From contig CANNFM010000024.1 in assembly GCA_947503835.1 (NCBI GenBank), positions 2,787 through 66,786 of the forward strand: a stretch of DNA of 64,000 nt, read 5' to 3'. Each line of letters opens with the position of its first letter. Within the stretch, counting starts at the first letter, position 1. The notes under the pieces were generated by a model. The model worked only from the letters and a program-made list of their open reading frames with translations, was not told the DNA's origin and made no database searches. The position numbers were made by a program, and so were the translations under genes. Positions 1 to 53,173 of the stretch are shown here, piece by piece. Source of the DNA: an uncultured Aquimarina sp. Its GTDB lineage: Bacteria; Bacteroidota; Bacteroidia; Flavobacteriales; Flavobacteriaceae.

Positions 1-52
1 TTTTAGAGTTTTTAGAATTCTTCAATTTCCCCTATATTATTAAAGCTGAATA

Positions 53-202
53 TTAATGTTCTTCTTTAGTACACGTAAAAGTATCAGAAGTTAAGTTTTG
101 AATTCCTAGAGCTCCTCCTTTTATAGAGTTAGGATTTTCAAGTTTAGTAATTCTTAATTTATCAAGAGTAAGTTTAGCCTTTGGATTGTGTGAATTTTTC
201 AT
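53..202 (-). CDS. Unannotated 49-aa RiPP precursor peptide with a Bacteroidota-type double-glycine leader (putative LanA-like substrate of the adjacent split LanB)
   Basis: Hand translation of the minus strand, ATG at 202-200 and TAA at 55-53: MKNSHNPKAKLTLDKLRITKLENPNSIKGG / ALGIQNLTSDTFTCTKEEH. The leader has the LxLxKxxIxxL...IKGG pattern typical of Bacteroidota GG-type natural-product precursors. The 19-aa core is rich in Ser/Thr (5) and has one Cys. An A-rich untranslated region precedes the ATG (cataaaaacaaaaacATG). The gene lies on the same strand as, and just downstream of, the lanB-like genes. It is below the ORF-track length cutoff. Confidence 0.7.
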   Translation of the reverse strand: MKNSHNPKAKLTLDKLRITKLENPNSIKGGALGIQNLTSDTFTCTKEEH

Positions 203-230
203 GTTTTTGTTTTTATGATTTTTGATAGTG

Positions 231-259
231 CTAAAGTATAAGTAAATCTTAAAAACAAA
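231..259 (-). promoter_or_regulatory. Candidate Bacteroidota-type promoter for the precursor peptide gene (-33 TTTG, 17-bp spacer, -7 TActTTAG)
   Basis: The minus strand reads ccTTTGtttttaagatttacttaTACTTTAGcactatc...ATG. There is one mismatch to the TAnnTTTG consensus. The predicted 5' UTR is about 25-30 nt and A-rich. Confidence 0.35.
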
Positions 260-284
260 GGAGAATCGAGGCTGTAGTTGTCTG

Positions 285-320
285 GTTTTCAGGAATGCAG
301 ATGTCTGGATTCCTGAAAAC
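285..320. promoter_or_regulatory. Perfect 12-bp inverted repeat (gttttcaggaat N12 attcctgaaaac) between the AraC-like gene and the precursor peptide gene; candidate operator
   Basis: Read directly: 285-296 gttttcaggaat, 309-320 attcctgaaaac. Each arm is preceded by the direct repeat gtctgg. No U-tract follows on either strand, so it is not a canonical terminator. Confidence 0.6.
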
Positions 321-352
321 AGGTTTGTAAATAATTGAAAATCAGTTGTTTA

Positions 353-2101
353 TTAGTTTTGTTGATTTTCCGTATTATATTGCTGCTTTTCGAGTTGTTT
401 TAGGAAAAATGAGGGATAGATTCCTGTGGTTTTATAAAATGACTTGGAAAAAGCTTCAGTGGTATTAAAGCCAATCTCATTTGCGATTGCTTTTATGGTA
501 TATTTTCTAAACTTTGAATTAGACTTTAATTCTTCGACTACGTAATCAATTCTCAGCTCGTTTACATAATTACTAAAACTTTTGTCCTTATGCATGTTAA
601 TCACTTTGGATAGATACTTAGAATTTGTTTTAAATCTTTTAGATAAACTACTAACGGTTAGATTAGCTTCTAAAAATTCATTATTGTTTTCAAAAGATTC
701 AAGATTTTTAAGGATATCATTAACGATAATTTCTGAAATTCCTATGTCTGTAGGTTTAGTATTTTCGGATTTTTCTTCTGCTGTTGTTGTTAGGGTTGTT
801 TTTATAGAAGGTTTTTTGTTATCATCGAGTAGTTCAAGAAATCTTTTTTTGTAAGTTCTTTTCTTTTTCTCGTTTAAAAATAGGGTTATCATTAATGCCA
901 AAGAGATTAGAGAAAGAATCACTAAAACAATAACCTTAGTTTTATTATTTTTTTCGAGAGAGTCAATGATTTCTTGTTTTTCTAATATTAAATTAGGTGT
1001 TGAGTATTCTTCGTTAATCTGTCGGGATAAGTATTTAAAATTATTGTCGAGTATACTATCTACAGTTAATAGTTTATCAATATAAAAAATGTGCTGATCT
1101 GTATTTTTTTGTTCTTTATAATATTTGATTAGCAATTCATATGCTTCTCTTATTTTGGGGAAGAAGTATTGTGTAGAAAAGGCTATTGAGTCGACTTTTT
1201 TGAGATGGTGTATAGATTTGTTAAAATCATTTTGAGAGAAGTATATTTTACCTAAATAGAGCTCTACTCTTTCTGCAGTACCAGGGCCTTGTATTTTATA
1301 ATCTCTTAATTTCTTTAATTTAGTAATGCTATCCAGACTAGGTTGATATTGTTTTTTATAATAATGTGCCATAGCCGTAGTCAATAGAAGCCTGGTATAT
1401 AAAATACTATCTTTTGATTTTAAACTTAAGCGTATAGCTTTTTTATTGATGGTGTAAGCAGAGTCGTATTTTTTTATTGCATTATATACCGCACCAGTGG
1501 CGTAGAGAGATTTAATATAATCATATTCATACTCTTTATCCTGTTTGAATTTGTTTTCGTAGTACGTTACGGTAGATTGCAAAAGTTCTAGACCTTCTTG
1601 GTATTCGCCAAGATTATTCTTTAAAATGGCAATAAAATATTTTGTCTTAAATTTTTGATCAATATTGTCGTTTTTATTTGCAAATAAATTAGCTTTTACT
1701 AATTCATCCATAGATTTTTGATAGTCTCCCTTAGAGCCAAAAACTCTGGCTTTTAATAAATAAGCTTTAGCTGGATAATCAAAATCTTTTTCTTCTTTGG
1801 TAATTGTTATAATACTATCGGCATACAATAAAGCTTCATCGTGCTCTGAAACTGTAGCAAGCATATAGTATCCATTAGCCTTTTCAATCTTGCTTTGATC
1901 TTGCTTTGCTTTTAATAAAAAGGCTTGTGCATATATACGCGCTTTTGCAGAATCATTTATTTGCTGATTAAAATTTTCGAAAAGCTCTGCGTATTTTTTT
2001 TGAACAAGATTTATATTTTTTTCGTTGATATCCTGGGTATAGATATTTTGAAGCAATATAAAAGTTGCAAGAAAGACGATTTTGTGTTTAATTTTTTTCA
2101 T
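353..2101 (-). CDS. Membrane-anchored TPR-repeat / AraC-family (HTH_18) transcriptional regulator
   Basis: 582-aa ORF. It has an N-terminal signal/anchor (MKKIKHKIVFLATFILLQNIYTQ), then about 360 aa of TPR-like helical repeats. One internal TM helix (VIVLVILSLISLALMITLFL) is followed by a basic stretch (NEKKKRTYKKRF), which fits the positive-inside rule. The C-terminus carries an AraC-type double HTH (...TIKAIANEIGFNTTEAFSKSFYKTTGIYPSFFLKQL). Confidence 0.85.
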   Translation of the reverse strand: MKKIKHKIVFLATFILLQNIYTQDINEKNINLVQKKYAELFENFNQQINDSAKARIYAQAFLLKAKQDQSKIEKANGYYMLATVSEHDEALLYADSIITITKEEKDFDYPAKAYLLKARVFGSKGDYQKSMDELVKANLFANKNDNIDQKFKTKYFIAILKNNLGEYQEGLELLQSTVTYYENKFKQDKEYEYDYIKSLYATGAVYNAIKKYDSAYTINKKAIRLSLKSKDSILYTRLLLTTAMAHYYKKQYQPSLDSITKLKKLRDYKIQGPGTAERVELYLGKIYFSQNDFNKSIHHLKKVDSIAFSTQYFFPKIREAYELLIKYYKEQKNTDQHIFYIDKLLTVDSILDNNFKYLSRQINEEYSTPNLILEKQEIIDSLEKNNKTKVIVLVILSLISLALMITLFLNEKKKRTYKKRFLELLDDNKKPSIKTTLTTTAEEKSENTKPTDIGISEIIVNDILKNLESFENNNEFLEANLTVSSLSKRFKTNSKYLSKVINMHKDKSFSNYVNELRIDYVVEELKSNSKFRKYTIKAIANEIGFNTTEAFSKSFYKTTGIYPSFFLKQLEKQQYNTENQQN

Positions 2102-2119
2102 TTCCTAATAGATGTATTT

Positions 2120-2995
2120 TCAATTAGAATTTAATGACATAGTTTTCATAGTGTCAGAGTTATATTTTTTGTTTAGGAAATCATAAATTATAAGCTCATA
2201 AAAACGTTGTTGTGATCTAAATGCTCTATTTACCATCATATGTATATAACTACTAATAAGATTATGTAATGACATTTCTAAAGAATTATTTTTGCTATAA
2301 TTTAAAATACGTCTAATGATTTCTTCTGTTGTATTGGCTTTATTGAGCAAAATTTTATCTAAAACTTCATAAGTCTCATTTGAATACGTATCACCTAAAA
2401 AAACAGAAATTTCTTTTTTTAAATTTCCGTATTTTTTATTGAGCTGTTTATTAAGGTTTTTATCAGCATTAAATTCAGCCTTATAACTATCTTTATTTTT
2501 AGAAACTAATATTACCTTTTCTTTAACTTCATATTCAAAGTTTTCTAATAATTGATGTATTGCCTTTAACACAAACAAAAAGTATAGCTCTTCATCTTCT
2601 ATTATTGACATGGCTTGTATCAACATTGTACTTTCATGATAAAAAAGCTCTTCGGATTCTTCAATAGTATTTGATCCGTATCGCTCTATTTCTCTTTGAT
2701 ATGTGTCAACTTGTATTTTATGTATTATGTCTTCATCTATATATGATCTTAATGCTTTATTCATCAAAAGAATTACTTCATTAATCTTTTTGATTTCATT
2801 AAGATGTAATCTAATTCTTATATGATACTCTGGATCATTATATCGTATAAAAAACCACTTATCTATAAGTTTATTTTTAATTAATTGTTCTACTAATGGT
2901 TTTATGGTCTCGGTTAAAATAATGTTAGACATTCTGGCACCACAATACAATTTGTAATACAACCATTCATCACCTAATAAGAATATTCTCTTCAT
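2120..2995 (-). CDS. Lanthipeptide/thiopeptide dehydratase C-terminal glutamate-elimination domain protein (SpaB_C-like); second half of a split LanB
   Basis: 291-aa ORF beginning MKRIFLLGDEWLYYKLYCG, the W-x-Y-x-K-h-Y opening characteristic of the LanB C-terminal / thiopeptide-type bacteriocin biosynthesis domain. Its ATG (2995-2993) overlaps the upstream ORF by 26 nt, suggesting translational coupling. Confidence 0.8.
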   Translation of the reverse strand: MKRIFLLGDEWLYYKLYCGARMSNIILTETIKPLVEQLIKNKLIDKWFFIRYNDPEYHIRIRLHLNEIKKINEVILLMNKALRSYIDEDIIHKIQVDTYQREIERYGSNTIEESEELFYHESTMLIQAMSIIEDEELYFLFVLKAIHQLLENFEYEVKEKVILVSKNKDSYKAEFNADKNLNKQLNKKYGNLKKEISVFLGDTYSNETYEVLDKILLNKANTTEEIIRRILNYSKNNSLEMSLHNLISSYIHMMVNRAFRSQQRFYELIIYDFLNKKYNSDTMKTMSLNSN

Positions 2996-5276
2996 TTTTC
3001 GTTTTAGTATCTGGTGTTAGTAGTGCAGTACTTTTCTTTTTTGAATTGTTTAACTTTTCTTCATTATAAAACGAAAACACAAATTGATTAGAGTAGTTCT
3101 TTTTCTGGCTTTTTAAAATGCTTTCTTCAGTGAATAGAAATTCTTCTAGTATAAATTGAGTTCTGTTTTTTACTATGCTAAATAACATTTTAACCGAAGG
3201 CATGTTTTCCAGGTTAATTAATAAAGTATTATCATTATCTATTAATTGAACATATTGTGGAATTTGGAGTTTTGATCTCCATTTTACCACTTCGGCAACA
3301 TTGTTTTGATTGTTATCAATGCTTTCTAATAAAGAATTAATACTTTTTGTAGTGATTTTCCATCTGGCTTTCGAAAATATAAACTCTTTGTACTCTACTC
3401 TTGGCAAGAAGGTGTTTTTTTCCATCATTCCTCCCCAATAAAACCCAATAGAACTCCTTAGGTCTTGTTGTTGCAGATCGCATAAAAAATGATAAATCGG
3501 TAAACTGTTTTGCCCACTATAGTTATGGGCGTTGGTTAATTTGGGAAATATTTCTGTATTGTTTACTTTGGATCGCAGAACTATCTTATTTCGTTTTATA
3601 GAAATTAGTATATCATCAATGAAGATTTGCTGCTCTTTGGGAAGGTTGGATTTTCCTAGGTAAGGGATTTCATAATTTCGAATTGTTGCTCGGCGTATTA
3701 TATTACCTGTTCTGGATTCTGGCAAATGTATGATTTCGGTTAGAAGTTTATCATGATTCATATCTTGTTCAAGATTTGCAATATGTTGAACTTGCTTCAT
3801 GATTTGAGTATTTCCTGTAGAAAAACGTCCTAAAAGATTTGCGGCAGATGAGCCTCCCATGTTTTTTAATACAAGTTTTTGTTTACCATTAATAGTTACA
3901 ATTTCTACGAGAGAAGATACTGTGTCGGGTAAATCATTCCAGTTTGCTGGTAGATGTTCAAAATCTTGATCTTGTAATTGTAATGTATAGGCGTTATCAT
4001 CATTTAATTCTTGCAATTTCTTATGTAAGATTTCATTTGCAGGATTCCATGAGATTTTTTGAATCTCCTGATTTTGGGGTGGGATATCTATACCATCTAA
4101 AAATGGTTTATAATCTGCGGCTTCTTGATTTTGAAGATATCCAATGCCAATTTCTGTATCTAAGGCTTTTGCAAGAGGAATTTCTCGAGTCTCATATCTT
4201 TTTATGAATGCAGTTTTGAATCTTTGTAGATTAGATTCTTGTGGGGGAGTGCTTATTTTGTTTAAAAGATTCATTACCCTTTTTGCCTTGTATGCAAACT
4301 GTACATCTAGTTGATTTTGTAGCGTTTTAATGTACATATCTGTTTGAAATAAATACTTAAGTTCAAAATCTACATCAAGTTTTTTTATTTCTTCGTTGTT
4401 CTTATGGTATAGATCAACAGAATTTCCAACATTTTGATCTATTCGATCAAGAAACTCCTGAAAATAGGTGATTTGAGTAATGATTGCGTCTGTATCCTTT
4501 AATTTTTTGAGAGTTTTATGAATTTGAAGTAAAAAACCTTCCCCACTAACAGAGGGCTCTAATTCACTAACCAAAATTTGATTATCAATGAGTTGGTTTA
4601 TGAATCCCTGAGCTTCGTTTTTAGATATTTCATCGTCGACCAAAAGAGAGGCCAGTTCTTCAACTTTTTTCCCTGATTTAGCACTGTTGATAATCACTTC
4701 AAGATATGGAGTATAGGTAACGGCTTCAATGCTATGTTGCCTACGATTATGGATATTATATGTATATTCAACATATCTATACTGCTTTCCTATTTTATAT
4801 AGACTATTGTTTGGATACCATAATAATTGATTCTTTATATTTTTTTCTTTGGATAATTTTTGAGAAAATGCAACTAGAAAATTCATGTCAAACCGAGTTT
4901 GTCTTTGATTTTCAGTATAATGTTGAAGTTCAATAGTTGTTAATTTTCCAAATTTCCCGATACTACAGCCTGCAAACAGACCAAAAGGTGTACATCTTGA
5001 TGACATCCGGGAGAGGTACTTAAGTAATGAGGTTTGTAACCGTTGTATTTTTTTCTGATCCCTTGTCTGGTTTGATAACCACTTTTCTATTTCAATAAAC
5101 AGTTCTGGAGATGCTAGAAAAATAGCTTCTTTGATAGCATTGTCATTCCATATTTCCTTATACTTTTCAAATGATATCTGGTTGTCTTTAGTTAAACTGT
5201 AATAAAAATCTAAAGGTAGCAGAGGTGTGCGTATACAAAAATCATCAAAAAATGTGTATGGATTTTTTTGTTTCAA
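2970..5276 (-). CDS. Lanthipeptide dehydratase N-terminal (glutamyl-tRNA-dependent glutamylation, Lant_dehydr_N) domain protein; first half of a split LanB
   Basis: 768-aa ORF. The N-terminus ...YTFFDDFCIRTPLLPLDFY matches the conserved F-x-x-R-T-P-L-L-P start of LanB and thiopeptide dehydratases, and the size fits the glutamylation domain. The start codon at 5276-5274 is TTG, with no nearby in-frame ATG. Confidence 0.85.
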   Translation of the reverse strand: MKQKNPYTFFDDFCIRTPLLPLDFYYSLTKDNQISFEKYKEIWNDNAIKEAIFLASPELFIEIEKWLSNQTRDQKKIQRLQTSLLKYLSRMSSRCTPFGLFAGCSIGKFGKLTTIELQHYTENQRQTRFDMNFLVAFSQKLSKEKNIKNQLLWYPNNSLYKIGKQYRYVEYTYNIHNRRQHSIEAVTYTPYLEVIINSAKSGKKVEELASLLVDDEISKNEAQGFINQLIDNQILVSELEPSVSGEGFLLQIHKTLKKLKDTDAIITQITYFQEFLDRIDQNVGNSVDLYHKNNEEIKKLDVDFELKYLFQTDMYIKTLQNQLDVQFAYKAKRVMNLLNKISTPPQESNLQRFKTAFIKRYETREIPLAKALDTEIGIGYLQNQEAADYKPFLDGIDIPPQNQEIQKISWNPANEILHKKLQELNDDNAYTLQLQDQDFEHLPANWNDLPDTVSSLVEIVTINGKQKLVLKNMGGSSAANLLGRFSTGNTQIMKQVQHIANLEQDMNHDKLLTEIIHLPESRTGNIIRRATIRNYEIPYLGKSNLPKEQQIFIDDILISIKRNKIVLRSKVNNTEIFPKLTNAHNYSGQNSLPIYHFLCDLQQQDLRSSIGFYWGGMMEKNTFLPRVEYKEFIFSKARWKITTKSINSLLESIDNNQNNVAEVVKWRSKLQIPQYVQLIDNDNTLLINLENMPSVKMLFSIVKNRTQFILEEFLFTEESILKSQKKNYSNQFVFSFYNEEKLNNSKKKSTALLTPDTKTKNEENILIR

Positions 5277-5312
5277 TGTAAAAATATAAATAAGCCCCGG
5301 TTAATAAGTACA

Positions 5313-5320
5313 CAAATATA
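5313..5320 (-). promoter_or_regulatory. Candidate -7 box (TATATTTG) for the lanB operon
   Basis: The minus strand reads ctgTATATTTGtgtac, about 37 nt upstream of the TTG start at 5276. This is a perfect TAnnTTTG, but no clear -33 TTG was found. Confidence 0.3.
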
Positions 5321-5423
5321 CAGTTTTCTTTATAATTGTTTTTTTTTATTAATTCTTATTTAAAATATTGATAATCAAATAATTGATAATTTTTTTATCT
5401 CCCTTAATTCCATGAATTACGGG

Positions 5424-5443
5424 TCTTGATTCCTGAAAACGGG
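5424..5443. promoter_or_regulatory. Second copy of the half-site motif (gtctNgattcctgaaaacNgg) in the divergent lanB / NusG-NRPS intergenic region
   Basis: Positions 5424-5443 (gtcttgattcctgaaaacgg) and 302-321 plus flank (gtctggattcctgaaaacagg) share an exact 13-mer, gattcctgaaaac, and match at 19 of 21 positions overall. Both copies are intergenic. Confidence 0.5.
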
Positions 5444-5452
5444 CTTTAACCA

Positions 5453-5485
5453 TTTGTTTTGTGGTTTAGTTTTGATTTATGTTTG
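5453..5485 (+). promoter_or_regulatory. Candidate Bacteroidota-type promoter for the NusG-like/NRPS-PKS operon (-33 TTTG 5453-5456; -7 TATGTTTG 5478-5485)
   Basis: The spacer is 21 bp. An alternative -7 box, TAGTTTTG, lies at 5467-5474. This promoter would give a leader of about 340 nt before the ATG at 5835. The short motifs are common in AT-rich DNA. Confidence 0.35.
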
Positions 5486-5658
5486 TATCAGATAACGAAA
5501 CAGATATTATTAATTCATATCATATTCGATTATTGATTTTAAACTTTTTGATTAGTAAAAAAGCATCTTATAATAGCTTAAAAAAGTTAAGATGAACAAA
5601 ATTAATTTAGAAGTTATATAAAGAACAGTAAGTAACTTTTTTACTGTAGAAGATTAAG

Positions 5659-5703
5659 AGTAAAAGTAGCAGCTTTTACTATACGTTACCTTTTATTTTT
5701 TTG
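5659..5703 (+). promoter_or_regulatory. Leader-region hairpin (agtaaaag/cttttact, 8 bp) followed about 10 nt later by a T-rich tract; possible attenuator or antiterminator-recruitment element
   Basis: The stem is 5659-5666 / 5673-5680 with loop tagcag, then atacgttaccttttattttttt. A second 7-bp hairpin lies at 5625-5647. Function was not established. Confidence 0.25.
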
Positions 5704-5834
5704 AGAATATACTTGATGTGAGTCAAGGAAGCGAAGCTATAGGCTTTTTCTAGATTTCTTTTGATTATCACTATTACAAAACACGAATATATACTTAAGA
5801 TAGTAAGTAAACTATCATCTAAAACACAATAATT

Positions 5835-6362
5835 ATGGGCAAACTTCTTAAAATAGGTTGGTACGTTTTATACGTTAGATCACATCAAGAAAAAAAAGTT
5901 GACAACTTGCTAAAAGAGAGTCAGCTGGAGTCATTTCTTCCTTTGGTAAAGACTGTAAGACAATGGAGTGATAGAAAGAAAATAATTGAAGCTCCTCTTT
6001 TTCCTTCATATGTTTTCGTCAAGATTAATTCTGCACAAGATTTCTATAAAGCATCATCGATTGAAGGTGCTTGCACCTTTATTCGCTGTGGTGGTGAATA
6101 TGCATTAGCCCAAGATCATGAAATACAAAAAATTAAGCTTTTTCTCGGTTCTAAGGATATCACTAATGTTGGTAAAGTTACCAGCAATCTTGAAGTTGGA
6201 GAAACTATGATGATTCAATACGGATCCCTTGCTGGTTTAGAATGTGAAGTCTTAAAGGTAAACAATGAAAATAAGATTGTTGTTCGATTAGATTCTATAA
6301 ATCAAGGTATTACTGCAACAATACCTTCGCAATTTTTATCAAAAATCTCAAAAGCAGTGTGA
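5835..6362 (+). CDS. NusG-family specialised paralogue (UpxY/LoaP/TaA-like transcription antiterminator)
   Basis: 175-aa ORF. It has an N-terminal NGN-like region (WYVLYVRSHQEKKVDNLL...PLFPSYVFVKI) and a C-terminal KOW-like region (GETMMIQYGSLAGLECEVLKVNNENKIVVRLD). It is the first gene of the ~58 kb co-directional block, and its TGA (6360-6362) overlaps the next start. Confidence 0.85.
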   Translation: MGKLLKIGWYVLYVRSHQEKKVDNLLKESQLESFLPLVKTVRQWSDRKKIIEAPLFPSYVFVKINSAQDFYKASSIEGACTFIRCGGEYALAQDHEIQKIKLFLGSKDITNVGKVTSNLEVGETMMIQYGSLAGLECEVLKVNNENKIVVRLDSINQGITATIPSQFLSKISKAV

Positions 6363-15143: not shown

Positions 15144-16130
15144 ATGAAATCACATGATATACAAATAATTTCGGGTAAAAAAATGTTGCTTCAAATCGAT
15201 GATAACAAGGTTAATATTTTTGATTGGCTACATCAATATAAAGAAGATATAGAAGATTTTATTTCTGTTAATGGAGCACTATTAATTCGTGGCTTGGGGG
15301 TTTCTAATGATAAAGAATTTGGAGAAGCTTTAGAATTAGTATTTGGAGAAGAATTAGCAAATTATACATACAGATCTACTCCAAGAAGAGAAGTAAATCA
15401 AAGTAAAGTGTATACAGCAACAGAATATCATGCTTCTGAGGTAATTCCTCAACATAACGAAAATGCGTATTCGAATTCTTGGCCAATGAGAATAGGATTT
15501 ACCTGTTTGGTTCCTGCTGATAAAATGGGGAATACTCCAATTTCGGATAGTAGAGAAGCATACCAAAAAATTCCTATTGAAATAAGAGAAGAATTCGAAA
15601 GAAAGAACATCAAGTATGTTAGAAACTATTCAGATATAGATTTGCCATGGGAAGAAGTATTTCAAACCACTAGCAAGACAGAGGTAGAGCAATATTGTAA
15701 TGAAAACAATCTAACATTTGAATGGACAGATAATGGATTGAGAACTAGTCAGGTAAATCAAGCTACGATCATGCATCCAACTACAAAAGAGATGTTGTGG
15801 TTTAACCAAGCTCATTTGTTTCACTCTAGTAACTTAGATTCAGAAATTAGAGAAGGATTAATAGAGTTGTTTGGTGAAGATAATTTACCACGTAATTCGT
15901 TCTTTGGTGATGGTACCCCAATTGACGAAGAAGCACTTTCGATCATAAGAAAAGTGTTTGAGGATACTAAATTTTCTTTTCAATGGAGTAAAGGAGACTT
16001 ACTTCTTCTAGACAATATGTTATATACGCACGGAAGAGAACCTTATGAAGGAAACAGAAAAATCCTTGTAGGAATGGCTAAAAAATATAGCTCTCAAATG
16101 CGTCGTAGTAGAGTATCTACAGATTTATAA
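15144..16130 (+). CDS. TauD/TfdA-family Fe(II)/2-oxoglutarate dioxygenase (SyrP/AsnO-like amino-acid beta-hydroxylase candidate)
   Basis: 328-aa ORF. It has an H-x-E facial-triad candidate (QHNENAY), a distal His (LYTHGREPY) and the typical ~330-aa size of NRPS-associated hydroxylases. It is embedded between NRPS genes. Confidence 0.75.
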   Translation: MKSHDIQIISGKKMLLQIDDNKVNIFDWLHQYKEDIEDFISVNGALLIRGLGVSNDKEFGEALELVFGEELANYTYRSTPRREVNQSKVYTATEYHASEVIPQHNENAYSNSWPMRIGFTCLVPADKMGNTPISDSREAYQKIPIEIREEFERKNIKYVRNYSDIDLPWEEVFQTTSKTEVEQYCNENNLTFEWTDNGLRTSQVNQATIMHPTTKEMLWFNQAHLFHSSNLDSEIREGLIELFGEDNLPRNSFFGDGTPIDEEALSIIRKVFEDTKFSFQWSKGDLLLLDNMLYTHGREPYEGNRKILVGMAKKYSSQMRRSRVSTDL

Positions 16131-16466: not shown

Positions 16467-17981
16467 ATGATAAGTATTCCTTTTAAACCATTTAAAACAT
16501 TCAGAAAAGACATTTGTAGTTGTATACTTTTTTTGGGTATCGCCCAATTAGGATTTACACAACTAAATAATCAGTATGATATTGTTTTGCAAGGAGGAAG
16601 AGTAATAGACCCTGAAACAAAACTTGACGCTATTCGAAATATAGGTATCCGTGATGGGCAAATTATTGAAATTTCAACTAAACCATTATCTGGAGCCGAA
16701 AACATTAATGTTTCTGGTCTAATTGTATCACCGGGGTTTATTGATTTGCATGTACATGGGATTACTAATGTAGAGCAAGAATACCAAATTAAAGATGGAG
16801 TAACCACTGCACTAGAGTTAGAGTGGGGGCTACCATTTTTAAAAGAATGGTATGAGCTGCGAAAGTCAAAAGCTATAATAAATTTTGGAGCAAGTGTTAA
16901 TTGGCCCATAACCAGAGTGCAATCGTTGGCTTCTTACCAAGAACAGCTAAGTTCTTTAAAAGAAACAATGTCTACAAAAGGTTTACCCGTGACAATGACT
17001 ATGCCCGCTTTTGGAAGAAGCTTTTATCAAGAACTACCTGTAGAGAAAATACCAGCGATGCTAGAGCATGTTCGGGCATCGCTAAAGAGTGGAGGATTAG
17101 GTATTAGTATGCCTATTGGGTATTTACCTGGCGCCAGTACCGAAGAAGTTTTTAGAACATATCAATTAGCCGGAGAGTTAAAATCACCTGTTTATGCACA
17201 TGTTAGAGAGGGTGGGATTATTGCCATTCAGCAAGTTATTTCTGATGCAGTGCTTACTAATGCTCCATTGCATATTTCTCATATCAATAGTATGGCTTTA
17301 AGCAACATTAATTTAGCTATTGAGATGGTGGATATCGCTCAAAAATCTGGATTTGATATCACAACAGAACTATATCCATATACAGCGGGTTCAACAGATT
17401 TAAAGTCCGCGATTTTTGATACGGGTTGGCAAAAAAAGTTGGGTATAAGTTTTAAAGATTTGCAGTGGGTTGCTTCTGGAGAACGATTAACAGAAGAAAC
17501 CTTTGCCAAGTATAGAAAAGAAGGAGGGACAGTTGTAATACATAATATGAAACCGGAGTGGATAGCATCAGGAGTTGCTTCAAAGAGTACAATTATAGCA
17601 TCAGACGGAATGCCATATGCAAAGTTAGCTCACCCTAGATCTTCAGGTACTTTCTCTAGAGTTTTAGGAAAATATGTTAGAGAGGATAAAGTACTAGATC
17701 TTATTGAAGCGATAAAGAAAATTACATTTCTTCCAGCAAAGAGATTGGAGATAATTGCCCCTGTAATGCAACGTAAAGGTAGAATTCAAGAAGGCGCAGA
17801 TGCAGATATTACAATATTCAATTTTGATAAAATAATAGACAAATCTACGTTCGAAAAAGGAATACAACCTTCAGAAGGAGTAGAATATGTTTTGGTTAAT
17901 GGTATTCCAGTTCTAAGAAAAGGAAAAATTGTAGAAAATGTTTTTCCTGGTCAACCTATTTACGGGAAATACAAAGATTGA
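16467..17981 (+). CDS. Secreted amidohydrolase-superfamily enzyme, N-acyl-D-amino-acid deacylase (D-aminoacylase, COG3653)-like
   Basis: 504-aa ORF with an N-terminal signal-like segment (basic n-region FKPFKTFRKD, hydrophobic ICSCILFLGIAQLGF). The core matches D-aminoacylases: DIVLQGGRVIDP, VSPGFIDLHVHG (HxH metal motif), DGVTT, and C-terminal GRIQEGADADITIFN...VEYVLVNGIPVLRKGK. Confidence 0.75.
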   Translation: MISIPFKPFKTFRKDICSCILFLGIAQLGFTQLNNQYDIVLQGGRVIDPETKLDAIRNIGIRDGQIIEISTKPLSGAENINVSGLIVSPGFIDLHVHGITNVEQEYQIKDGVTTALELEWGLPFLKEWYELRKSKAIINFGASVNWPITRVQSLASYQEQLSSLKETMSTKGLPVTMTMPAFGRSFYQELPVEKIPAMLEHVRASLKSGGLGISMPIGYLPGASTEEVFRTYQLAGELKSPVYAHVREGGIIAIQQVISDAVLTNAPLHISHINSMALSNINLAIEMVDIAQKSGFDITTELYPYTAGSTDLKSAIFDTGWQKKLGISFKDLQWVASGERLTEETFAKYRKEGGTVVIHNMKPEWIASGVASKSTIIASDGMPYAKLAHPRSSGTFSRVLGKYVREDKVLDLIEAIKKITFLPAKRLEIIAPVMQRKGRIQEGADADITIFNFDKIIDKSTFEKGIQPSEGVEYVLVNGIPVLRKGKIVENVFPGQPIYGKYKD

Positions 17982-51310: not shown

Positions 51311-53173
51311 ATGTGCGGAATTTGTGGTTTTTTGAAATTCGATAGTGGGGTTTCGGGAGAAGATAATAGAATAATTGAAAATATGAATAATAAACTTATT
51401 CATAGAGGTCCCGATGCTCAGGATACATTACTTTTTGATAATGTTGCATTAGGATTTACCAGATTAAGTATTATCGGATTAGAAAATGGTATGCAACCTA
51501 TATATAACGAAGATAGGTCAATATTAGTAGTATGTAATGGAGAAATCTTCAACTACATCGAATTAAAAAAAGAATTAAAAAATGCAGGACATGTTTTTAG
51601 AACAGAATCGGATGTAGAAGTTATTGTTCATTTGTATGAAACATATGGCACTGATTTCTTAGATAAGTTAAATGGCCAGTTTGCGTTTGCGTTATATGAT
51701 ACAAAAGAGAAAAGACTTTTTTGCGCACGAGATCAAATGGGTATTATTCCATTTTTTTACACTTTTGTTGAGAACACATTTATTTTTGGTTCAGAAATTA
51801 AAGCTATCCTAGAGCATCCTTCGGTAAAAAGACAAGTAGACCTAACCGGATTGGATCAAGTATTTACTTTTCCGGGATTAGTAAGCCCAAGAACTATGTT
51901 CAAGGATATTAAAAGTCTAGAGAATGGACATTTTCTTTTGGTTAATGCTTATGGAGAAATAAAAGATGTTGAATACTGGGATTTGATGTATCCGGAAGGA
52001 GAAATGAAAATGAACGGTAAACCAGAAACTGCTTATATAAATGAGTTAGAGGAAGTGTTTAATAATGCTATTAATTTAAGGTTAAGGGCCGATGTTCCTT
52101 CTGGGTTATACTTAAGTGGAGGATTAGACTCTTCAATGATAACCGCAAAAGTCAATCAATTAGTTCCGGATATAAAGAAAGAGGCATTTTCAATTGATTT
52201 CATAGACTCACAATATTCAGAGTCTGTCTATCAAAAATTAATAGCAGAGCAAAGTAATGCAAAGCTTAATCAGAAAACATTCTTCTATGATGATATTAGC
52301 GAAAGATTACTGCATTCTGTTTATCATAGTGAGTGTCCTATTAAAGAAACATATAACACAGCATCATTGTCGCTATCTGAAGCAGTTAGAGAAAAAGATA
52401 TAAAAGTAATTCTCTCTGGTGAAGGAGCCGATGAATTCTTTGCAGGATATGTGGGGTACAGGTTTGATAAAATGAAAGGATTAAATACCACTCAAGATCC
52501 AATAGCTCCAGAAGAACGAGCGTTGAGAAAAAAACTCTGGGGAGACGAATCTTTTTTCTATGAAAGAAATTATACCGAGTTTAATTCACTCAAAAAAGGT
52601 TTGTATTCAGCAGATGTTAATGCTTCGTTCGACGAAATCAATTGCTTAAATCATACGCTAATTAATACAGATCGTATAAAAAACAGGGATGTATTAAATA
52701 AAAGAGCATATATCGATTATAAGATGAGGTTGGTCGATCATTTGGTTTCTGATCACGGTGATAGAATGGCCATGGCAAATTCAGTAGAGGTACGATATCC
52801 ATTTTTAGATAAGGAACTCATAGAGTATTCAACACATTTGCCTTCTGACTTAAAACTTAATGGATTTACAGAGAAGTATATTTTGAAACAAATGGCGACT
52901 CGATTTTTACCAAAGAAAGTCTTCGAAAGAGAAAAATTTCATTTCATTGCTCCGGGAAGCCCTTATTTATTACAAAAGAATATCGAATATATTAATGATT
53001 TATTGTCATACGATTTGATAAAGAAACAAGGATATTTTAATCCAGACGAAATCGAAAAACTTAAAAAGAAGTATAGCCAAAAAGGGTTTACAGTCAATGC
53101 TCCTTTTGAAAGTGATTTATTAATTGTTGTAATCACTTTTGGAATGCTTTTAGATAAGTTTTTTAAATCTTAA
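51311..53173 (+). CDS. Asparagine synthetase B-family glutamine-dependent amidotransferase
   Basis: 620-aa ORF. The N-terminal MCGICG fits an Ntn-type class II glutamine amidotransferase with Cys2 as nucleophile. A PP-loop LSGGLDSS is present in the synthetase domain. The gene is inserted between two NRPS genes. Confidence 0.9.
   Translation: MCGICGFLKFDSGVSGEDNRIIENMNNKLIHRGPDAQDTLLFDNVALGFTRLSIIGLENGMQPIYNEDRSILVVCNGEIFNYIELKKELKNAGHVFRTESDVEVIVHLYETYGTDFLDKLNGQFAFALYDTKEKRLFCARDQMGIIPFFYTFVENTFIFGSEIKAILEHPSVKRQVDLTGLDQVFTFPGLVSPRTMFKDIKSLENGHFLLVNAYGEIKDVEYWDLMYPEGEMKMNGKPETAYINELEEVFNNAINLRLRADVPSGLYLSGGLDSSMITAKVNQLVPDIKKEAFSIDFIDSQYSESVYQKLIAEQSNAKLNQKTFFYDDISERLLHSVYHSECPIKETYNTASLSLSEAVREKDIKVILSGEGADEFFAGYVGYRFDKMKGLNTTQDPIAPEERALRKKLWGDESFFYERNYTEFNSLKKGLYSADVNASFDEINCLNHTLINTDRIKNRDVLNKRAYIDYKMRLVDHLVSDHGDRMAMANSVEVRYPFLDKELIEYSTHLPSDLKLNGFTEKYILKQMATRFLPKKVFEREKFHFIAPGSPYLLQKNIEYINDLLSYDLIKKQGYFNPDEIEKLKKKYSQKGFTVNAPFESDLLIVVITFGMLLDKFFKS

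Follow-up and report, generated by a model that had tools for sequence, protein, structure and literature searches.

A LanB-linked leader peptide gene paired with a membrane regulator gene, without LanC, in Aquimarina

The peptide gene, its neighbors and their conservation

The stretch of DNA analyzed here (the window; 64,000 nucleotides of contig CANNFM010000024.1, from an uncultured Aquimarina sp.) carries near its left end, on the minus strand, a small open reading frame (ORF) at 53-202 whose product is laid out as a leader followed by a core. Upstream of it on the same strand lie a gene for a membrane-spanning regulator and the two genes of a split LanB dehydratase. Judged from its sequence and conservation, 53-202 is a genuine conserved gene for a leader-plus-core peptide. 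We propose that it probably encodes the precursor of a peptide synthesized ribosomally and modified post-translationally (RiPP) for the adjacent split LanB, giving a cyclase-free dehydropeptide that would be trimmed by a secreted S9 peptidase. The comparison covered 169 sources, namely the window and 168 related loci (given by L numbers); the best 80 matches of a profile search of contigs omitted the nearest orthologues, which were recovered through contigs encoding LanB_C homologues. The features concerned are:

53-202, minus strand: precursor peptide gene, 49 codons (translation MKNSHNPKAKLTLDKLRITKLENPNSIKGGALGIQNLTSDTFTCTKEEH) plus stop, ATG start
113-202, minus strand: leader part, codons 1-30, MKNSHNPKAKLTLDKLRITKLENPNSIKGG
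56-112, minus strand: core part, codons 31-49, ALGIQNLTSDTFTCTKEEH
231-259, minus strand: promoter-like element of the Bacteroidetes type, TTTG at 259-256 and TACTTTAG at 238-231, 28 nt before the ATG
285-320: 36-nt palindrome GTTTTCAGGAAT-CCAGACATCTGC-ATTCCTGAAAAC, located between the putative peptide promoter and the regulator gene
353-2101, minus strand: one-component membrane regulator of the TPR-AraC type, 582 amino acids (aa), Pfam HTH_18 and TPR
2120-2995, minus strand: split LanB glutamate-elimination subunit, 291 aa, PF14028 (Lant_dehydr_C) 2.8e-66 and TIGR03891 2.7e-64
2970-5276, minus strand: split LanB glutamylation subunit, 768 aa, TTG start, PF04738 (Lant_dehydr_N) 1.3e-142 over model positions 2-649 of 649

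The ORF translates exactly to the peptide quoted in an earlier note on this DNA, and the leader architecture claimed there is present in full: LTLDKLRITKL at residues 11-21 is an exact LxLxKx5L motif (L11-T-L13-D-K15-LRITK-L21), and the leader ends with IKGG at residues 27-30, its double glycine being G29-G30. The core of 19 aa contains, as was said, five Ser/Thr (T, S, T, T, T) and one Cys, the residues of a class I core; the core of the L086 orthologue contains no Cys. Leaders with an LxLxKx5L motif and a GG end are described for the Bacteroidetes class I LanA peptides, whose LanB is split as in the pinensin system (Walker et al. 2020, PMC7268733). The description of the gene as hidden and missed did not stand, as the identical 49-aa product (P0001) is already among the public gene calls, together with a 61-aa paralogue (P0002) on one 68,257-bp NCBI contig; the orthologue in A. 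mytili carries the annotation 'hypothetical protein'.

The Glu-tRNA-dependent LanB of the cluster is encoded as two proteins (PF04738 and PF14028) on the same strand, 1.9 kb upstream of the ORF, where the earlier note had placed it. The two genes overlap by 26 nt, and the lanB-N orthologue in L082 is of equal length. The closest relatives of the LanB_C protein are all from Aquimarina, the protein of Aquimarina sp. 2304DJ70-9 being 89% identical and that of A. mytili 76%. What that account of the surroundings had overlooked is the tightly coupled TPR-transmembrane-AraC regulator, a second precursor and an S9 peptidase beyond the window. None of the small ORFs at 5277-5834, between lanB-N and the NusG-like gene, is leader-like.

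Orthologues or paralogues of the precursor occur in five further Aquimarina-type loci, L001 (A. mytili), L082, L083, L085 and L086/L087, of which L083 and L085 are metagenome-assembled genomes (MAGs) and L086/L087 is one metagenome contig in two copies (six records, five loci). The small ORF is kept beside the orthologous lanB pair in each, which is the conservation that the earlier note had named as a check. The five loci share a common gene order: a nonribosomal peptide synthetase (NRPS) region headed by a NusG-like gene reads one way, and LanB-N, LanB-C, TPR-AraC, one or two small ORFs and Peptidase_S9 read the other, followed by unrelated housekeeping genes. In some loci, including L001 and L082, a second precursor copy follows the first; by the same arrangement, P0002 has to be located immediately to the left of the window, with the S9 gene beyond it, just past the window's left edge. 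These statements on the DNA left of the window are drawn from P0002 and the orthologous loci.

Leaders of this subfamily follow the consensus MK.SHN.KAKLTLDKLRITKL[DE]N...IKGG, and the cores are variable, with length differences between loci that are in frame. Leader Ka/Ks lies between 0.10 and 0.6 in most pairs (0.16 against L083 and 0.22 against L086). A conserved leader under purifying selection together with a core that is free to vary is typical of RiPP precursors.

The spacer of 150 bp between the ORF and the regulator gene is more conserved than the coding sequence. Within it, TACTTTAG has seven of eight matches to TAnnTTTG, and TTTG ... TAnnTTTG is what we take to be the Bacteroidetes -33/-7 promoter consensus. 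The block CTTTGTTTTT..GATTT.C.T.(A/C)TACTTTAGCAC is nearly invariant across five aligned loci, and equivalent cassettes elsewhere carry a canonical TAnnTTTG about 20-30 nt ahead of the peptide ATG. We infer from this that the 231-259 element acts as a promoter.

The palindrome at 285-320 is identical, loop included, in all six subfamily loci, save for one loop base in L083/L085. On folding of the 150-nt region (region z = -5.9) it gives a strong hairpin, with no U-tract after it. No other copy was found in the window, including upstream of its NRPS and lanB operons, or in 82 other loci compared, and Rfam matched no family at window positions 1-6000; related GTCTGTTTTC...GAAAACAGAC palindromes are present in the cassettes of L002, L003 and L007. 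The palindrome may serve the AraC domain as an operator, or may be an unusual terminator-like hairpin. It is invariant though the proteins of those loci are only 55-90% identical, and it exceeds any nearby coding sequence in conservation. A second inverted repeat, TTTGTTTTTAAGATTT / AAATCATAAAAACAAA at 209-259, flanks the -7-like box and the 5' untranslated region and becomes a perfect 16-nt repeat through a change in L082; T-rich and A-rich sequence may produce it by mere coincidence.

These data bear on the simplest objection, that the ORF arose by chance in AT-rich intergenic DNA. The window (32% GC) contains 205 ATG-started ORFs of 25-130 aa, so that an ORF of 49 aa by itself means little, and scans for consensus sigma-70 promoters and terminators were blank on the ORF's strand, although such scans are uninformative for Bacteroidetes. 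A chance ORF would nevertheless have to account for a reading frame that survives in-frame indels in five other loci, for a leader whose protein sequence is conserved while its codons change synonymously, and for the promoter-like block that precedes it. It would also have to be the one small ORF of the window with the LxLxKx5L...GG pattern and the sole match in the 64 kb to a leader hidden Markov model (HMM) iterated over the related loci. The conservation data effectively refute this objection, and we regard it as hardly conceivable.

Loci without LanC and the regulator-peptide cassette

LanC was searched for with an HMM built from the loci of this analysis and validated against PF05147, which was positive in 63 of 89 LanB sources, as a rule immediately upstream of lanB-N. 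It was blank throughout the window and within 10 kb on either side in L001, L082, L083, L085 and L086, in agreement with the Pfam lists, and the earlier remark that no LanC was in view is borne out. Within the same distance none was found in the 12 loci that rank nearest to the window by LanB_C, or in L044, L053, L068, L078 and L081. Among 80 metagenome loci anchored on the regulator, 19 have LanB and only one has LanC. Having no LanC (PF05147) in the cluster, the system fails a defining test for class I lanthipeptides. Of its earlier assignment to the Bacteroidota class I or pinensin type, the leader type and the split LanB hold, and strict membership fails on LanC. As read from its genes, the system is not a class I lanthipeptide system in the strict sense and resembles the dehydration half of class I biosynthesis.

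The clusters that lack LanC form a coherent and recurrent architecture. Split-LanB clusters of this kind, found in Aquimarina, Tenacibaculum, Flavobacterium and many metagenomes, almost always contain a cassette of TPR-transmembrane-AraC regulator and GG-leader peptide, a serine peptidase (S8, S9 or S15) and Cys-poor cores. Where a gene stands between precursor and lanB-N in LanC-less clusters, it is always a serine peptidase, with interchangeable families: S8 in L093, L104, L113 and L148, S15 in L120 and L166, and S9 in L133, L145, L146, L153 and L156. In the latter five distant loci, and in L165, the S9 homologues lie within peptide-S9-LanBN-LanBC operons.

The precursors differ accordingly in composition. 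The iterated leader HMM recovered 121 small ORFs in 68 of the 89 LanB sources, 108 of them on the LanB strand and clustered just upstream or downstream of LanB. None of the 93 distinct precursors within 7 kb of LanC is free of Cys, and their mean content is 3.0-4.9 Cys, whereas 14 of the 34 LanC-less cassette precursors have no Cys at all and 27 have at most one (mean 0.97). A D-[TS]-[IVFL] motif, seen as SDTF in the window core and as NDTV, NDTI and TITDV elsewhere, occurs in 13 of 34 LanC-less cores versus 5 of 93 LanC-linked ones, and this recurrence suggests that its Thr may be the conserved dehydration site.

Locus L165 (1524-15223) contains two back-to-back split-LanB systems with one TPR-AraC gene shared between them. 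The first is arranged as Cys-free peptide-S9-LanBN-LanBC, and the second as three Cys-rich peptides-LanBN-LanBC-LanC.

The regulator of the window is predicted to place its TPR domain outside the cytoplasm and its DNA-binding domain inside. It has a signal-peptide-like N-terminus, TPR repeats at about residues 25-385, one transmembrane helix at about 388-410, whose hydropathy peaks with 3.0 at residue 390, then KKKR, and at the C-terminus an AraC-type HTH (486-568); the helix is kept in nearly all of 34 homologues. Close orthologues are 98-99% identical in the HTH domain versus 86-89% in the TPR domain. Of 34 regulator copies from LanB loci, 33 are followed on the same strand by a GG-leader ORF within ~330 bp, mostly at 85-175 bp. 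The family as a whole (1082 representatives at 50% identity, E<=1e-30) is not confined to RiPP loci, as a recognizable downstream leader ORF is present in only 20 of 67 copies sampled independently of LanB and missing in the other 47. For annotation, this provides a rule: precursors may be sought within ~330 bp (usually 85-175 bp) downstream of a 570-aa TPR-TM-HTH_18 gene. In L007 (10854-19445), one LanB pair is followed by four tandem regulator and precursor cassettes, each with a different core, one of which has 7 Cys; the 20.8-kb locus contains no LanC.

Proposed product and alternatives

On these grounds we consider it very probable that the peptide is the substrate of the adjacent two-part LanB, and probable that its product is dehydrated and largely ring-free. 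Transcription, dehydration sites, the fate of the Cys, the cleavage site, the export route and any bioactivity are predicted here from what is known of the protein families. The precursor gene, just downstream of a lanB(N)-lanB(C)-regulator operon, would be driven by its own conserved promoter, which the TPR-transmembrane-AraC regulator probably controls or activates. The 30-residue leader, with its LxLxKx5L motif and GG end, would bring in the split LanB; one subunit would glutamylate Ser/Thr of the core with Glu-tRNA(Glu) and the other would eliminate the glutamate. LanB enzymes of Bacteroidota depend on the cognate GluRS/tRNA(Glu) pair (PMC9993889). Some or all of T38, S39, T41, T43 and T45 may be converted in this way to dehydrobutyrine (Dhb) or dehydroalanine (Dha), the likeliest site being the Thr of the conserved [ST]-D-T-F. 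Because the cluster has no LanC, the product would be a dehydroamino-acid peptide, its single Cys staying free or being added non-enzymatically to a neighboring Dha/Dhb, with at most one small ring. The suggestion in the earlier note of a mostly dehydrated, minimally cyclized product finds support in the comparison, as the orthologous loci have no LanC and related LanC-less cores are Cys-poor or Cys-free.

The precursor or precursors would then be exported and most likely trimmed by the signal-peptide-bearing S9 enzyme of the prolyl-oligopeptidase/oligopeptidase-B family. In the window clade this peptidase carries a signal peptide and keeps its Ser/Asp/His triad intact; among curated models oligopeptidase B comes nearest, with a score far below the cutoff. 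An inactive pseudo-peptidase was considered when GxSxGG seemed to be missing and was rejected, as the alignment has SGSAGG with Ser, Asp and His intact.

Several observations weigh against a LanB-made, ring-free and S9-trimmed product. The search of precursor models proposed in the earlier note did return NCBIfam NF038153 (lant_leader_L1a, class I lanthipeptide leader), but with 16.2 bits (E 0.0087, model positions 1-22 of 32), below the curated cutoff of 22. All subfamily members lie below this cutoff, at 11.7-16.6 bits, and a LanC-linked Kordia precursor reaches 23.2; no other NCBIfam precursor model matched the peptide at E<=1, and Pfam gave no match. In sequence terms, the leader type and the link to LanB are solid, and strict membership by the curated NF038153 model is wanting. 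In addition, the precursor has no conserved Pro, so the site of S9 cleavage is not predictable, and no exporter is visible in the loci of the window clade: a C39-ABC transporter (PF03412 with ABC) is absent from the Pfam lists of the window, L001, L082, L083, L085 and L086, and is found in L002, L003 and L068, which are LanC-less but more distant. The remaining points concern the Cys of the subfamily, LanC genes elsewhere in Aquimarina genomes, and loci in which peptide and LanB occur apart, and each leads to an alternative.

A Cys is found 0-5 residues after [ST]DTF in seven of the eight subfamily members, so that a thioether or disulfide may matter in the subfamily, and one small ring is possible, closed spontaneously or by a LanC from elsewhere in the genome. 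In its full form, this alternative makes the peptide a true class I lanthipeptide in which such a LanC closes one lanthionine or methyllanthionine ring from the Ser/Thr of [ST]DTF to the Cys downstream at its short and fairly constant distance. A LanC acting in trans is conceivable, given that Aquimarina genomes have several lan clusters, as in the MAG that contributed both the LanC-less L002 and the LanC cluster L041, and the cassette peptides of L007 are Cys-rich with no LanC in view. We nevertheless judge it unlikely, as LanC is absent from 10 kb on either side in all 12 closest loci and the cores of the L086 orthologue and 13 other LanC-less cassettes are entirely without Cys. Moreover, LanC and LanC-less systems adjoin in L165, each with its own peptide type, which argues that LanC-less systems are self-contained. 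Another alternative, that the peptide is independent of LanB and only cleaved by S9, the LanB pair having become adjacent through chance insertion, draws on loci where the parts are found alone. In the metagenome locus L089 (6488-12869), NRPS and NusG-like genes are followed, on the opposite strand, by TPR-AraC (59% identity), a GG-leader peptide with a Thr-rich, Cys-free core, and S9, with no LanB genes or remnants in 17.7 kb. Conversely, L084 (7707-10879) and L088 (7656-10861), from A. pacifica and one MAG, have a LanB-N/LanB-C pair 69-73% identical to that of the window after a Mur-ligase gene, in another genomic context, with no regulator, GG-leader ORF, S9 or NRPS nearby. These loci indicate that the modules are separable. 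Against a chance neighborhood stand the many distant genera and metagenomes in which LanB-N/C, peptide, peptidase and regulator form one operon-like unit, the LanB-associated type of the leader, and the Ser/Thr present in all cores, including that of L089; we hold such independence to be very improbable.

The last alternative is compatible with the dehydropeptide proposed above and concerns its role: the peptide might chiefly be an extracellular signal, trimmed by S9 and sensed by the periplasmic TPR domain, with autoinduction and possibly control of the UpxY-headed NRPS. The arrangement of the genes fits this. Regulator and peptide are a fixed pair in 33 of the 34 copies and stand in four tandem cassettes in L007; the predicted topology turns the TPR domain outward and the HTH inward; the invariant palindrome and the promoter-like element lie between the two genes; the triad of regulator, peptide and S9 is kept in L089 beside the same NRPS in the absence of LanB; and the cores are short, polar and rich in Asp, Thr, Gly and Asn, unlike typical membrane-active lantibiotics. 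However, these are arguments from architecture, and adjacency is equally explained by a regulator that drives precursor transcription upon another cue. The 47 of 67 independently sampled homologues with no recognizable leader ORF downstream also speak against this role, as does the absence of the palindrome upstream of the NRPS and lanB operons of the window. We consider a signaling role possible but rather doubtful. A still wider proposal joins it to the biosynthetic one: a widespread RiPP family of Flavobacteriia in which split LanB enzymes make cyclase-free dehydropeptides (Asp-Dhb-hydrophobic) that are matured by serine peptidases, act as signals for a membrane TPR-AraC receptor and may gate the 58-kb NRPS. 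Taken as a whole, we put this forward as a speculative and rather improbable extension.

Related systems, significance and the NRPS region

The closest known systems are the pinensins of Chitinophaga pinensis and other Bacteroidota class I peptides, with which the window shares the leader motif, the GG end, the split LanB, the phylum and a precursor on the same strand beside lanB. It differs in that its cluster has no LanC, the loci of its clade have no C39-peptidase ABC exporter, and the core has one Cys, with none in relatives. Thiopeptides (TbtB/TbtC) and linear azole peptides of the goadsporin type resemble it in their split Glu-tRNA-dependent dehydratase and in Dha/Dhb that are not consumed by LanC, and the elimination subunit is a match to the model TIGR03891, named 'thiopeptide-type bacteriocin biosynthesis protein'. 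Unlike theirs, the window core is not rich in Ser and Cys, and the Pfam lists of the window and the orthologous loci contain no YcaO/cyclodehydratase, dehydrogenase or [4+2] pyridine synthase, which places the system outside these classes. An S9 gene adjoining the precursor and presumed to trim it has a parallel in the prolyl-oligopeptidase leader peptidases of class III (FlaP; 'LanPB' in PMC7268733). Here, however, the synthetase is LanB and not LanKC, the S9 bears a signal peptide, and no Pro is conserved in the precursor where cleavage might plausibly occur.

As regards regulation, a small peptide gene paired with the gene of a TPR transcription factor is reminiscent of nisin/NisRK autoinduction and of the RRNPP pairs (PlcR-PapR, Rgg-SHP), and self-induction is conceivable. 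In contrast to NisRK, the regulator is one membrane-spanning protein and not a two-component system. RRNPP regulators are cytoplasmic receptors of re-imported peptide with an N-terminal HTH and C-terminal TPR, whereas the present one has the reverse order and is membrane-anchored, which sets it apart from that family.

The handful of LanB products characterized so far from Bacteroidota, namely the pinensins, peptides of Pedobacter, and Chryseobacterium and Runella peptides made by heterologous production, all come from LanC-containing clusters. The accessible literature, of limited coverage, gave no description of a LanC-less architecture with a regulator cassette and no characterized cyclase-less example. 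Precursor-centered mining is reportedly anchored on LanC and would have missed LanC-less clusters. If the products are linear Dha/Dhb peptides, they would make up a distinct RiPP subclass with electrophilic warheads and offer a simple two-enzyme route to dehydropeptides. To our knowledge, peptide signaling in Bacteroidota is poorly understood; if the peptides are also ligands of the paired membrane regulator, this would be a new signaling logic in the phylum, and if they are indeed signals, peptide quorum sensing in Bacteroidota would be built on lanthipeptide dehydration chemistry.

The plus strand from 5835 is occupied by the NRPS region:

5835-63838, plus strand: NRPS assembly line, about 58 kb
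5835-6362, plus strand: UpxY-family transcription antiterminator, heading the assembly line
15144-16130, plus strand: TauD-type dioxygenase, within the NRPS line
16467-17981, plus strand: amidohydrolase, within the NRPS line
51311-53173, plus strand: asparagine synthase, within the NRPS line

The adjacency of the NRPS is lineage-specific, related LanB/peptide units elsewhere occurring without one. An NRPS-RiPP hybrid was set aside, as the unit of LanB, peptide and regulator is widespread without NRPS and the palindrome is not found in the NRPS promoter region. The start of the NRPS is syntenic in A. mytili and other close loci.

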